The translations under genes and the position numbers were made by a program. A stretch of DNA of 64,000 nucleotides from Escherichia coli (GTDB taxonomy: Bacteria; Pseudomonadota; Gammaproteobacteria; Enterobacterales; Enterobacteriaceae), in NCBI RefSeq assembly GCF_003018235.1, contig NZ_CP027437.1; one strand, written 5' to 3'. Positions 15,314-25,649 of the stretch are shown piece after piece. The notes under the pieces were generated by a model, which saw only the letters and a program-made list of their open reading frames with translations, did not search any database and had not been told where the DNA came from. Each line of letters opens with the position of its first letter. Within the stretch, counting starts at the first letter, position 1.

Positions 15314-15391
15314 GGGATTTTTGCACGAGAGTAGTTTAATTGAGTATGTAACTACATGATTTAAAATAATTTGTCTAATTCAACTTTTAAA

Positions 15392-15417
15392 CCGTATAAC
15401 CAAACGTATAACTAAAA
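15392..15417. repeat. Left-end direct repeat CCGTATAACCAAACGTATAACTAAAA (two tandem CGTATAACYAAA units); candidate att/arm site
   Basis: Matches 25493-25518 with one mismatch. Confidence 0.6.
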
Positions 15418-15620
15418 TGATTTGCTGAAAAAGTGTACAATTTAAAGACAGATTTTCCCGGGGGTTATAAAACTGCGAAAATTTCGTAGTTATCCCGATA
15501 CGGGGATCACCATATCGGGATTGGATACCTGGCTTTTTTTCCGGTTAACTCTTAATCATCTGCGTGATCATAATGATGATTCAGCCAGCGCAATTTTGCG
15601 TTATCGGGAATATCAGCAAG

Positions 15621-15902
15621 TTACCGCCGTAACCGCTCCGGCTTCTTCCAGTGGTAGGTAATTTTTTCTTTCTCCCGATACATCTCCACGCGGCGCTTGT
15701 AGGCCAGCATTTCAAGAACGCGGATCCGTATGTCGCGCATATCCACATCATTAAGCTGGATACCATCACGGCGCATCACCTCAGCAACCACACACGCATA
15801 ATTTTCGGCGGTCACGCAGTCCGGCTGCGTAGCCTGTTCGTCAGCCTGCTGGCTGATTCCGGCAACTCGGCGGATTAATCGCAGTAGTTCGGCTTCTGTC
15901 AT
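15621..15902 (-). CDS. Hypothetical protein (93 aa), island-terminal gene
   Basis: ORF MTEAELLRLIRRVAG...; I do not recognise the family. Confidence 0.45.
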   Translation of the reverse strand: MTEAELLRLIRRVAGISQQADEQATQPDCVTAENYACVVAEVMRRDGIQLNDVDMRDIRIRVLEMLAYKRRVEMYREKEKITYHWKKPERLRR

Positions 15903-16045
15903 TGTGCCCCCTCGCGCTGGTTAAGAAAACAAGCTCAGATTTTTTGTAAAGAATCTGTCACGCTAAAAGATGTCGAACAAAAAACAATCACCTTCATCAT
16001 CTTTTTTACATAAAAACAATTAAAAACAATAATTTACATACATGA

Positions 16046-16158
16046 TGATGATGGCGATAAAATCATAAAAATGCGCTTTTTTCCGCGCCGACCCGCCCCG
16101 TGGACAGGCCCACCCCACCAGGAGGACCCGCAAAAAAGGCGGCATATTTGCCGCCCTG
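16046..16158. repeat. Direct repeat copy A (~110 bp): minus-strand intrinsic terminator plus conserved GC-rich block
   Basis: Aligns with 18594-18701; contains hairpin GGCGGCAAATATGCCGCC plus T6 on minus strand 15 nt after the capsid gene stop. Confidence 0.7.
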
Positions 16159-16169
16159 TAAACTGTGTA

Positions 16170-24085: not shown

Positions 24086-24189
24086 GTTGATGCTCTCTTC
24101 ATGTTTGGCGGCCTTTGGGGGTAACGAGATAATGCAACTATACGACGGTTTTACATGGTTTTCATCGTTTTTGCTGGTTTTGTGTACAG

Positions 24190-25431
24190 TTATACCGCAC
24201 GGATACCCCTTTTACCACCAGCAAGGGTAACGCCCGTTGCCGCTGCCTCAACAAATTCCCCCCACCAGCGCATCAGCACAATGCGTTTTTCCAGGTAGTT
24301 ACTGCGGTTGTAGGCTCTCCTTACTTCGTTGGTGTCCACGTGGGCCAGTGCGGCCTCGATTACGTCCGGCTCGAATCCTTCCTCGTTTGCTGCTGTGCTG
24401 AATATGGCGCGTAATCCATGAGACACCAGCACGCCAGCGAACCCCATGCGCCGTAATGCTGCGTTGGCGGTCTGGCTGTTCATCGGCTGGCGTGGGTCTT
24501 TCAGGCTCGGGAAAACATGCTCGCGGTGGTGGCTGATTGGTTTCATGGCCTCCAGCACTGCCATAGCCTGACCGCAAAGCGGGATAACGTGATCACGTCG
24601 CATCTTCATACGTCCGGCTGGTATCGTCCATTGTTGCTCGTCCAGGTCGATTTCTTCCCAGCGTGCTGACGATGCCTCAACAGGACGGGTTACGGTAAGT
24701 AGCTGCCACTCAATCAGTAGTCTTGTCTGCCGTTCTGTTGCCGATACGGATAAAGCCCGCATAAGCTCCGGTAGCTGCTCGGGGCGGATTGTTGGCATAT
24801 GTTTTTTTACTGGGGTGGGGAAGGCCTTGCGCACGTTTGTAGCCGGATTGGTATCAATCATCCCGCTGTTGGCGGCGTAATCCATAACTTCATTGATGCG
24901 CTGTAAAACCCGCTTGAGCGTTTCCAGGTTGCCGCGTTCCTTGATGGGGGTGAGTATCTCCACGAACCTGCGGGCGGTGAGGGTGTCTACTGGCGTGTCA
25001 CCGATGAACGGGAATACATATTTCTCCAGCGATCTCCATATGTCTTTAATTGTGTTGGGTGCAAGATTCTGGCTGATTTTCACCTGGTACCATGCCGCTG
25101 CTACATTTTCGAACGTGTTGCCCTGTCTCCGTTCCTCTGCTTCGCGTTTTCGTCGCTCGTGTTCCTGTGGGTCGGTGCCGGAAGAAATTAACGTCCTGTA
25201 CTCGCTACGGCGTTTTCTGGCATCAGCCAAGGAAACATCATCAAGCGATCCAAAACTCAGCAATATTCTTTTTTTGTCCAATGGGCGGTAGTAGGAAAAT
25301 CGCCAGAGTTTTGATCCAGACGGTTTGACCAGGAGAAAAAGCCCTCCGCCGTCCTGTAGGGTGTACTCCTTTTCCGCTGGTCTGGCTGCTTTGATCTGCA
25401 CTGTGGTTAATGGGGTTGTTTTTCTCGCCAT
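24190..25431 (-). CDS. Tyrosine integrase, P4/CP4-57 IntA-like (about 413 aa)
   Basis: N-terminal arm-binding-type region (KEYTLQDGGGLFLLVKPSGSKLWRFSY), C-terminal catalytic region (HGLRAIFST, ALAHV); adjacent to tRNA 3' end. Confidence 0.9.
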   Translation of the reverse strand: MARKTTPLTTVQIKAARPAEKEYTLQDGGGLFLLVKPSGSKLWRFSYYRPLDKKRILLSFGSLDDVSLADARKRRSEYRTLISSGTDPQEHERRKREAEERRQGNTFENVAAAWYQVKISQNLAPNTIKDIWRSLEKYVFPFIGDTPVDTLTARRFVEILTPIKERGNLETLKRVLQRINEVMDYAANSGMIDTNPATNVRKAFPTPVKKHMPTIRPEQLPELMRALSVSATERQTRLLIEWQLLTVTRPVEASSARWEEIDLDEQQWTIPAGRMKMRRDHVIPLCGQAMAVLEAMKPISHHREHVFPSLKDPRQPMNSQTANAALRRMGFAGVLVSHGLRAIFSTAANEEGFEPDVIEAALAHVDTNEVRRAYNRSNYLEKRIVLMRWWGEFVEAAATGVTLAGGKRGIRAV

Positions 25432-25462
25432 ATGTCTATGATTCCACACGAAAAAATGGGGT

Positions 25463-25520
25463 TTTAGTTATACGGCTTTAGTTATACGTCAGCCCGTATA
25501 ACTAAACGTATAACTAAAAA
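25463..25520. repeat. Cluster of four CGTATAACTAAA 12-mers (two inverted, two direct) upstream of the integrase gene; candidate integrase arm-type binding sites / attR
   Basis: TTTAGTTATACGG x2 then CCGTATAACTAAACGTATAACTAAAAA; direct part matches 15392-15417. Confidence 0.6.
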
Positions 25521-25574
25521 ATCCGGCTGATAGCTTATAAATCCGGTGATGTCCGGTGACTAAAAACCATAAAA

Positions 25575-25608
25575 AAACCCGCCAATCAAGTGATTAGCGG
25601 GCTTTTCG
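25575..25608 (-). terminator. Intrinsic terminator downstream of proL
   Basis: Minus-strand hairpin GCCCGCTAATCACTTGATTGGCGGGT followed by T7. Confidence 0.7.
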
Positions 25609-25649
25609 TGTCTGAAACTGTTATTTCCGGTGGTATCCGGTGGGCGATT

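Follow-up and report, generated by a model that had tools for sequence, protein, structure and literature searches.

The proL locus of this Escherichia coli chromosome raises the question of what kind of element has inserted there. The original prediction listed two tyrosine recombinases, an AlpA regulator, a RepA-like helicase with iterons, a PerC-like regulator and a capsid-protease fusion, and proposed an unclassified or hybrid element that depends on a helper. All of the listed genes are found and helper dependence is very probable. The class is another matter: the island is assigned here with high confidence to the cos-type Gram-negative PICIs, within the EcCI family, and sits at that family's known proL (yejM-narP) site. 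The EcCI family was first described in E. coli CFT073, ATCC 25922 and O111 11128. The value of this result is mainly classificatory: the island joins the cos-type Gram-negative PICIs, at a hotspot already known for PICIs, and calls for no new class.

The window (the whole 64-kb stretch of DNA analysed here) is collinear with E. coli K-12 MG1655 save for two differences. A block of 10.3 kb, at about 15324-25647, is added at proL, in the 3' end of the gene, and yejO is free of the IS5 copy that interrupts it in K-12. K-12 lacks the island and presents an empty site, with only 102 bp between the yejO stop and proL, so the statement that the two genes adjoin in K-12 and the reading of the block as an accessory insertion both stand. 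The alignment also fixes the ends at an imperfect direct repeat, in which GCACGAGAG at 15323-15331 and at 25656-25664 is preceded by GATTT; the bounds first proposed, 15320-25649, were a few bases off at most. Both att ends are intact.

A second repeat marks the ends from within. Six copies of a putative arm-type site occur in the 64-kb window, all of them at the two island ends, where 0.41 would be expected in the window. Its sequence, CGTATAACYAAA, matches the att entry published as the 'att core' of this PICI group (PMC6092414, Table S1), yet the copies lie inside the junctions that K-12 defines. The published 'att core' for PICIs at the proL site is probably an integrase arm site, with the true junction at the 3' end of proL; crossover is predicted to fall within GATTT...GCACGAGAG, outside the published TTTGTAGTTATACG repeat.

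The exact island is rare, at least 80% of it being present in 1 of 5426 complete E. coli genomes, and the family of its primary integrase is found in 444 of the 5426 (8%). In the draft assemblies examined, the identical, int2-bearing island is always at proL, and mosaic relatives share this site.

Fourteen ORFs make up the island, all intact. Thirteen lie on the minus strand, the strand of int, and read away from the tRNA, much as the original prediction had it. Matches in PHROGs, NCBIfam and Pfam support the listed genes (Table 1). The 353-aa ORF spanning 22412-23473 is not taken for a gene: relatives annotate only its 3' 204 nt, which form the Icd-like ORF, and the remainder overlaps genes on the opposite strand. 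PADLOC recognizes no known defence system in ten island proteins. In the window and the island, Rfam identifies proL and the L25 leader and nothing else; a match to a miRNA family over the iterons, below threshold, was dismissed. Sigma-70 promoter sites are no more numerous than by chance.

Table 1. Features of the island and its junctions (positions in the window; strand given where assigned).
Feature	Position	Strand	Remarks
Left junction, tRNA-distal att repeat copy	15313-15331		GATTTTT-GCACGAGAG; from alignment with the empty K-12 site
Putative integrase arm-type sites	15393-15416	+	two tandem CGTATAACYAAA copies
Terminal 93-aa ORF	15621-15902	-	conserved in PICIs; phrog_1561 at 1e-54
Distal cos-like site	15970-16170	-	cosN-like 25-mer at 16078-16102; direct repeat of the proximal site
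Capsid fusion, 631 aa	16170-18065	-	ClpP-like prohead protease, scaffold and major capsid protein in one fusion
Small 75-aa ORF	18056-18283	-	end overlaps the start of the capsid gene by 10 nt; phrog_4934 at 2.5e-48
Proximal cos-like site	18500-18720	-	cosQ-, cosN- and cosB-like parts; cosN-like 25-mer at 18627-18651
PerC-family regulator	18709-18984	-	phrog_994, Pfam PF06069; 73% identical to EcCICFT073 PerC
Second tyrosine recombinase, int2	18981-19994	-	P2-phage integrase family; Pfam Int_N and Phage_integrase
Conserved 86-aa ORF	19966-20226	-	downstream of the origin
Predicted replication origin	20227-20430		two iteron sets (AAAGTGAGG) flanking an AT-rich stretch
RepA-family (AAA_25) replicative helicase or initiator	20428-21828	-	phrog_2850 at 7.8e-253, PF13481
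DUF4222 protein	21825-22121	-	Pfam PF13973; kept upstream of the replicase in PICIs
93-aa ORF without family match	22138-22419	-	annotated in strain SCU-111, whose island is identical
Icd-like small protein	22412-22615	-	NF033153 at 1e-16; 62% identical to EcCICFT073 homologue
YlcI/YnfO-family ORF	22776-23000	+	phrog_949; 66% identical to EcCICFT073 homologue
AlpA-family regulator or excisionase	23478-23684	-	Pfam PF05930
77-aa ORF	23852-24085	-	between int and alpA; 70% identical to the same-position ORF of EcCIATCC25922
Primary integrase, P4 type	24190-25449	-	Arm-DNA-bind_3, Phage_int_M, Phage_integrase
Putative integrase arm sites	25463-25518		four CGTATAACTAAA copies, two per orientation
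Right junction	25645-25726	-	att repeat GATTTGGTCG-GCACGAGAG; overlaps the proL 3' end
proL, tRNA-Pro(GGG) gene	25650-25726	-	

Comparison with EcCICFT073, the experimentally studied prototype of the cos-type Gram-negative PICIs (PMC6092414; PMC6739421), supports the classification. The gene order is the same in both: int, alpA, a divergent ylcI, an icd-like gene, DUF4222 and the replicase with its origin, followed by a small ORF, perC, a second small ORF, the capsid gene and the terminal 93-aa ORF. Nine of the 14 island proteins have collinear homologues in EcCICFT073, whose YlcI/YnfO homologue is likewise divergent from its neighbours. DUF4222 homologues occupy the equivalent position in EcCICFT073 and EcCIATCC25922. 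The 86-aa ORF is 87-88% identical to the post-origin ORF of these two elements; their last ORFs each share 87% identity with the terminal ORF of the island; and the 75-aa ORF is 92% identical in the KY177 PICI. The primary integrase shares 92.5% identity with its EcCIATCC25922 counterpart, and that element resides at the same published locus. The first reading found no match to the PICI gene set; these comparisons overturn it. Collinearity with one described satellite family, which had been named as grounds for revision, holds in architecture and in protein homology but does not extend to nucleotide identity over the full length.

Other hallmarks of PICIs agree. The island is of the usual length (about 8-15 kb), has its integrase at one end and uses a dedicated att site; AlpA follows int, and transcription runs in one direction; a replicase is laid out with a predicted origin; the protease-scaffold-capsid fusion provides the capsid gene; and the genes that a PICI should lack (tail, holin, portal, head-tail connector) are absent. 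By the SatelliteFinder scheme the island is probably a four-of-five 'Type B' PICI, because terS and Rpp are absent.

What is missing separates the island from other classes. Scans of its ORFs with PHROGs and NCBIfam find no portal, terminase, tail, lysis, holin or head-tail connector gene, and no terS or Rpp homologue was found among its proteins. It thus lacks the complete morphogenesis, lysis and immunity modules of a temperate prophage, the capsid-protease gene being its sole morphogenesis gene, and lacks the terL, portal and head-tail adaptor and connector genes that a cf-PICI would carry for itself. The earlier exclusion of a conventional prophage, of a cf-PICI and of the P4 gene set is upheld. 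For a P4-like satellite depending on a P2-like helper, the P4-family integrase, AlpA and the Icd-like ORF might be cited, as might the P2 integrase family of int2, and the authors of SatelliteFinder point out that typical P4-like satellites would score as three-component 'Type C' PICIs too. This reading is nonetheless extremely improbable. PHROGs and NCBIfam detect no psu-delta-sid operon, no epsilon and no alpha-type primase-helicase; the P2/P4 cos 19-mer is absent even with three mismatches allowed; and the cos and capsid genes are lambdoid in type.

The replication module fits the PICI assignment. The N-terminal 125 aa of RepA are 66% identical to EcCICFT073 Pri, and the reference PICI EcCI11128 has a RepA gene of matching type. 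Just 3' of the RepA gene, AAAGTGAGG occurs in six exact copies within 200 bp, where 0.36 would be expected in the whole window. The layout is that of the EcCI11128 origin, in which the iteron variant is AAAGTGGGG. Gram-negative PICI origins are described as lying directly 3' of the replicase, with two iteron sets around an AT-rich region, and the predicted origin of the island fits this description.

The capsid fusion is well supported as a family member (NF045540 at 881 bits against a cutoff of 475; phrog_133 at 5.5e-279). Its protease domain keeps the motifs SPGG and AASMAS, which we take to be catalytic. Over full-length alignments it is 51-52% identical to the fusions of Stx phages, mEp460 and cdtI, whereas its capsid domain is 68% identical to a copy in a Salmonella PICI. 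The island might accordingly be read as a decayed lambdoid prophage, or a degenerate cf-PICI, whose portal, terminase and connector genes have been lost, and both the phage-type capsid-protease fusion and the phage-type cos sequences would suit such an origin. We consider decay very improbable. Every ORF and both att ends are intact, no pseudogene remnant of a portal, terminase or tail gene was found, the organization is that of classical PICIs, and the parts that define a cf-PICI (terL, portal, head-tail adaptor) are absent. The greater similarity of the capsid to the Salmonella PICI than to phages also speaks for a long-standing satellite lineage rather than recent decay.

Nor does a capsid gene set the island apart from PICIs. 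Capsid genes are usual in enterobacterial PICIs, being carried by 21 of 29 reference PICIs, and are a core component of the SatelliteFinder PICI model. The diverged fusion of the island would most likely co-assemble, or compete, with the head proteins of the helper. By analogy with Ccm in SaPIbov5, the effect may be interference or size redirection. The proposed role is weak because the EcCICFT073 capsid gene did not account for interference and was reported to be dispensable for transfer; the fusion, too, is probably not essential for transfer. We know of no E. coli PICI for which size redirection has been shown.

Candidate packaging determinants flank the capsid block in the form of two cos-like repeats, each with an exact copy of the cosN-like 25-mer. 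The proximal site is 85% identical over 167 nt to the Rz-terS region of phage 1720a-02, its best phage match, and to CP-1639; the distal site aligns with the region upstream of terS in 1720a-02 and mEp460. The island has two cos-like sites homologous to the lambdoid region upstream of terS, with neither terS nor an Rpp homologue. EcCICFT073 is reported to carry two cos sites as well, and one of them, with a lambda-type cosN, is found just after its capsid block, in the equivalent position.

These sites suggest what the helper might be. 1720a-02, CP-1639 and mEp460 are lambdoid phages that use a protease-scaffold-capsid fusion too; a search for literature on such fusions in lambdoid phages returned nothing relevant. 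Since the cos-like sites resemble the region upstream of terS in fusion-bearing lambdoid phages, the helper is likely a lambdoid phage of the 1720a-02, CP-1639 or mEp460 type. Its packaging and head module would comprise terS, terL, a portal and a protease-scaffold-capsid fusion, as in 1720a-02, CP-1639, VT1-Sakai, mEp460 and cdtI. The 64-kb window contains no helper prophage. A proximal cos with helper-like cosN and cosB would account for the island doing without TerS and without an Rpp adaptor, and predicts a packaging route for cos PICIs that is free of both and relies on a helper-like cosB. The predicted helper group includes Stx-converting phages, which bears on gene transfer in STEC strains.

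A life cycle for the island can be proposed from these parts. The insertion, the gene homologies, the repeats and the likeness of the cos-like repeats to phage cos regions are seen in the sequence; what is said of induction, replication, packaging and capsid function is modelled on experiments with relatives. The island would lie silent in the chromosome, where its P4-type integrase would have inserted it into the 3' end of proL, probably using the CGTATAACYAAA arm sites at both ends. A lambdoid helper would switch on the AlpA-driven, one-directional operon. The island would then excise and replicate from the iteron origin with its own RepA-family helicase, and its DNA would be cut and packaged at its own cos by the terminase of the helper.

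Individual relatives share some of these modules and replace others. EcCIATCC25922, EcCI11128 and EcCIED1a.1 are published PICIs at 'yejM-luxR' (Fillol-Salom et al., 2018; PMC6092414, Table S1), and all three share with the island the proL locus between yejM and yejO/narP and the same arm-site repeat. Besides its integrase and terminal ORF, EcCIATCC25922 has an AlpA 76% identical to that of the island, but differs in its primase (D5-type), in its capsid gene (lambda-E-type, accompanied by a decoration gene) and in having terS. EcCI11128 has the same RepA-type replicase and origin layout, but carries terS and a separate major capsid gene. Both EcCIATCC25922 and EcCI11128 lack the protease-scaffold-capsid fusion and the second recombinase, with ssb or other small ORFs in the slot that int2 occupies in the island.

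EcCICFT073 shares gene order, nine homologous proteins, one-directional transcription, an iteron origin 3' of the replicase, cos sites and an expected dependence on the helper terminase. Its att, however, is ycfD-phoQ rather than proL, the two integrases are 24% identical, and its capsid is of a different type. In EcCICFT073 a lambda-type cosN is paired with a cosB that has diverged, and RppA is required for retargeting the helper TerS, whereas the island has no Rpp and a cos that is helper-like through cosB. The helpers of EcCICFT073 are lambda and phi80; the predicted helper of the island is of the 1720a-02 or mEp460 type. SaPIbov5 (PMC8569155), a staphylococcal PICI, is likewise a cos satellite without its own terminase that encodes a homologue of the helper major capsid protein, and its Ccm is the working analogy for a possible role of the capsid fusion. 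It is unrelated in sequence and has a Gram-positive host, and Ccm is a capsid homologue alone, where the island encodes a whole fusion. cf-PICIs such as EcCIEDL933 likewise encode a capsid protein and a protease of their own, together with int, alpA and a replicase, but add terL, terS, a portal and a head-tail adaptor and connector, none of which is in the island.

The second recombinase is the only unusual feature of the island; it falls outside any described PICI scheme and is not explained by the PICI model. Int2 is at most 59% identical to phage integrases, that value being reached with the integrase of a genuine P2-like prophage. Its nearest relatives lie directly after the replication origin in two other satellites, both from Salmonella: one is 66% identical, in the same slot of a D5-type-primase PICI, and the other 60% identical, in an island with a P2-type capsid and a DUF927 primase. 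Together with the RepA-type E. coli PICI studied here, these make three int2 contexts. The gene is intact, and a dN/dS of 0.075 indicates strong purifying selection.

Such conservation could be taken to mean that int2 combines with the RepA replicon and the protease-capsid fusion into a life cycle unlike that of PICIs, in a hybrid or new satellite class: a plasmid-persisting element in which int2 resolves or forms multimers, for example, or one in which int2 manipulates a P2-like or other helper prophage. The nearest int2 relatives (60-66%) recur in the post-origin slot of satellites and rank above phage integrases, and literature searches turned up no account of a second, internal integrase in PICIs. 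We still judge a new class unlikely. All other modules have counterparts in the same order in published PICIs. Close relatives that share the capsid fusion and RepA carry ssb in place of int2, which marks the int2 slot as an exchangeable accessory slot. All observed int2-bearing copies are at proL and so give no sign of int2-driven integration elsewhere. Short-word BLAST around int2 in the three contexts returned matches of 12-26 nt and no credible shared recombination site.

Within a cos-type PICI, int2 may, though this is less likely than not, mark an undescribed satellite step, whether making or resolving multimers for cos packaging or plasmid-like upkeep, or acting on a helper prophage. 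Either role, if true, would add a new functional module to PICIs, and the conserved gene poses a concrete, testable question. At the DNA level, int2 is present in 1 of 5426 complete E. coli genomes.

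The island at proL is a new mosaic of an already known kind of phage-inducible chromosomal island (PICI). When the whole window was aligned by megablast with 50 kb of K-12 MG1655, the two were collinear at 97-98% identity with two exceptions: an additional block between window positions 15323 and 25648, and the missing copy of the IS5 that interrupts K-12 yejO. The stated absence of the island from K-12 is borne out, as the distance from the yejO stop to proL is only 102 bp there, and the predicted ends (15320-25649) are accurate within a few bases. Comparison of the left junction (TTGGGATTTTT-GCACGAGAG-TAGTTTAA) and the right junction (GGTGGGCGATTTGGTCGGCACGAGAGGATTT) with the K-12 empty site (TTGGGATTTTTGGTCGGCACGAGAGGATTTGAACC) shows that the island lies between the copies of an imperfect direct repeat, GATTT and then GCACGAGAG, which overlaps the 3' end of the tRNA gene (ARAGORN and Rfam).

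The published att core of the PICI group at this site is TTTGTAGTTATACGTTTG(G)TTATACGG (Table S1, PMC6092414). This core matches CGTATAACYAAA repeats, whose six copies in the 64 kb window are all confined to the two island ends, ~60 bp and ~130 bp inward of the junctions set by the K-12 empty site. From their placement, the repeats are probably best read as arm-type binding sites for the integrase rather than as the att core, and the true crossover probably falls at the proL 3' end, a reading that would correct the published att site for the yejM-luxR PICIs. In the flanking DNA, yejO is an intact 863-aa autotransporter ORF; it is IS5-disrupted in K-12 and a pseudogene in SCU-111 and several other strains. 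An L25 ribosomal-protein leader upstream of rplY (Rfam) is expected core-genome content.

The genes named in the original prediction are all present, namely two tyrosine recombinases, AlpA, a RepA-like helicase with iterons, PerC, and a capsid-protease fusion. Six exact AAAGTGAGG iterons lie within 200 bp after the RepA helicase gene, whereas 0.36 copies would be expected across the entire window. Among the island ORFs, no gene for a portal, terminase, tail, or lysis was found. A 353-aa open frame on the minus strand (22412-23473) is almost certainly no gene: relatives have an annotation for just the final 67 codons (the Icd-like ORF), and the remainder overlaps the opposite-strand ylcI/ynfO region, which counts against it.

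Features of the proL island and its surroundings, with BLASTP identity to EcCICFT073 counterparts
Feature	Window position	Assignment	Identity to EcCICFT073
yejO	12629-15220
Left copy of bounding repeat	15323-15331
CGTATAACYAAA repeats, left end	15393-15416
Distal cos-like repeat	15970-16170
Capsid fusion, 631 aa	16170-18065	ClpP-like protease + scaffold + major capsid (NF045540, 881 bits, cutoff 475)
Proximal cos-like repeat	18500-18720
int2	18981-19994	Second tyrosine recombinase (Int_N + Phage_integrase)
RepA	20428-21828	RepA-family (AAA_25) helicase	66% to Pri (N-terminal 125 aa)
Integrase	24190-25449	P4-type	24%
AlpA			weak match
YlcI			66%
Icd-like protein			62%
DUF4222 protein			35%
Post-origin ORF			87%
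PerC			73%
Terminal ORF			87%
CGTATAACYAAA repeats, right end	25463-25518
proL, minus strand	25650-25726	tRNA-Pro(GGG)
Right copy of bounding repeat	25656-25664
L25 leader, minus strand	29442-29467

In E. coli CFT073, the region of EcCICFT073, the prototype among Gram-negative PICIs, runs int, alpA, divergent ylcI, icd-like, small ORFs, DUF4222, and pri, then a small ORF, ssb, perC, a small ORF, capsid, decoration, and a further ORF, ending with a 144-aa ORF, whose length suggests RppA, and a 93-aa terminal ORF. The island has this gene plan in common. Reference PICIs recorded at 'yejM-luxR' or 'yejM-aidA' are EcCIATCC25922, EcCIED1a.1, EcCI11128, EcCI11368.1, SdCI1012, and SbCISb277 (Fillol-Salom et al. 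2018 Table S1, PMC6092414), and EcCIATCC25922 and EcCI11128 were compared with the island. EcCIATCC25922 likewise adjoins proL, and its integrase, AlpA, and terminal ORF are 92.5%, 76%, and 87% identical to those of the island. EcCI11128 also has a RepA-family helicase, and its origin is laid out identically (an iteron pair, an inverted copy, a single copy, an AT-rich stretch, and a second pair), the sole difference being the iteron variant AAAGTGGGG in place of AAAGTGAGG. Because of these likenesses, and because the island has neither the terL, portal, and head-tail connectors that define capsid-forming PICIs (cf-PICIs) nor the defining features of P4-like satellites, it is a member of the Gram-negative PICI family. 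The original prediction of a satellite thus stands, whereas its suggestion of an unclassified element does not, as 9 of the 14 island proteins match EcCICFT073 in the same order by BLASTP.

Capsid genes are usual in enterobacterial PICIs (21 of 29 reference PICIs). Of the five core components in the SatelliteFinder PICI model (int, regulator, pri-rep, capsid morphogenesis, and terS), the island has four, all but terS, and SatelliteFinder would therefore be expected to class it as Type B. The first ~125 residues of the RepA-type replicase are 66% identical to those of the D5-type primase in EcCICFT073 and EcCIATCC25922, a protein that is otherwise unrelated. Iterons differ between the replicase types, GTCTACC with this D5-type primase versus AAAGTGAGG with the island RepA; despite this, the common N-terminal domain suggests swapping between PICI replicases.

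At least 80% of the exact island occurs in one of 5426 complete E. coli genomes (strain SCU-111, 98.8% identity), and at least 23 draft assemblies have the identical island; the eight places detailed are all at proL, the others being reported as similar. Among the 5426, its integrase family is found in 444 (8%) and its capsid-fusion lineage, at ~90% nucleotide identity, in 143, including many STEC. At the same site, dozens of mosaic relatives are found with modules exchanged: the replicase is a primase or RepA, and the head/packaging module is a protease-capsid fusion, a separate major capsid gene with terS, or terS with DUF1441 and ProQ/FinO.

The island is of note for a cos arrangement without Rpp and TerS, a predicted helper group, and an unexplained, conserved int2. 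In lambdoid phages, cos is located in the interval between the Rz gene and terS. A direct repeat of ~90-200 nt lies on both sides of the block formed by a small ORF and the capsid gene; both copies contain the exact 25-mer CACGGGGCGGGTCGGCGCGGAAAAA and align with phage mEp460 DNA immediately upstream of terS. Over 167 nt, the proximal copy shares 85% identity with the stretch from the Rz endopeptidase gene to terS in 1720a-02 and with CP-1639, and its likeness to phage sequence reaches to within ~25 nt of where the phage terS begins. A perfect lambda cosN, CGTTACGGGGCGGCGACCTCGCGGGTTTTCGC, closely follows the capsid block of EcCICFT073 and is itself preceded by the same kind of terminator. In EcCICFT073, the cosB region is unlike that of the helper, whose TerS is retargeted to this region by RppA, whereas the proximal cos of the island is phage-like throughout the presumed cosB. 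No Rpp or TerS homologue was found among the island proteins in profile scans or by BLASTP against EcCICFT073. The phage-like cosB and this lack of an Rpp or TerS homologue suggest that the island would be packaged directly by the unmodified terminase of its helper. Since phages with matching cos regions bear the same kind of protease-scaffold-capsid fusion, the predicted helper is a lambdoid phage whose head module is that of 1720a-02, CP-1639, VT1-Sakai, mEp460, or cdtI; no helper phage was found in the 64 kb window.

The island fusion aligns full length with those of the cos-matched phages at only 51-52% identity. Its protease domain retains the conserved motifs SPGG and AASMAS, presumably catalytic, and its capsid domain is entire. 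A Pro/Ala-rich linker of ~31 residues at the protease-to-scaffold junction of mEp460 gp05 (comparison sequence L004, 4352-6310) is missing from the island fusion. PICI-encoded capsid fusions are without this linker, and head assembly or head size might be affected. The capsid domain is 68% identical to a Salmonella PICI copy versus 55% to the phage version, which points to a long-standing satellite lineage. In a natural variant (L017, 10296-10394, from draft GCA_019379415.1, corresponding to window 16054-18690), the small ORF and capsid fusion are lost as the exact segment between the cos repeats, with one hybrid repeat left; chromosomal maintenance therefore does not require the capsid module. 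Homologous recombination or a cos-to-cos packaging event could have produced this deletion. The capsid gene of EcCICFT073 was deleted in a test of it as an explanation of interference and was reported to be unneeded for transfer. The best analogy is the cos-type SaPIbov5, in which the capsid homologue Ccm redirects head assembly (PMC8569155), and the island fusion is hypothesized to act in a similar manner.

The second recombinase, int2 (334-337 aa), has the usual tyrosine recombinase boxes (..GAR.., HxLRH, GH, ..Y..) when read by eye. It occupies the slot of ssb in relatives and overlaps both neighbours, the post-origin ORF end with its start and the perC start with its stop. By DNA, it is found in only one of the 5426 complete E. 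coli genomes. Homologues at 57-59% identity in P0029 and P88-related phages belong to genuine P2-like prophages, beside C and cox at the end of the prophage. For two int2 variants from E. coli PICIs, 88% identical as proteins, dS is 0.85 and dN/dS is 0.075; the gene is therefore maintained by selection while resident in PICIs. Its position directly after the replication origin in all three satellite contexts, the island and two from Salmonella, suggests a link to the excised replicon, for example in multimer formation or resolution. No shared candidate recombination site was found around int2 in these contexts, no alternative integration locus of int2-bearing islands among the places detailed, and no literature on a second recombinase in PICIs.

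The first Salmonella enterica satellite (L020/L021, 2446-12358) is a PICI inserted inside the ugp operon, between two BPD_transp permease genes on one side and MalK-type ATPase and GDPD genes on the other. It has the same two-recombinase architecture as the island, in the order Int, AlpA, DUF4222, D5-type primase, origin, P2-type recombinase (66% identity to int2), small ORF, and a 653-aa protease-capsid fusion. The second (L028/L029, 1-12600), also from S. enterica, is a different satellite-like island, encoding a P4-type Int, AlpA, a P2-type capsid protein (PF05125), and a DUF927 primase followed by an origin with GGTGTAACA iterons, a P2-type recombinase (60% to int2), an Ogr/Delta-like zinc-finger ORF (recognised by eye), and MazEF. 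It may represent an undescribed type of P2-dependent satellite.
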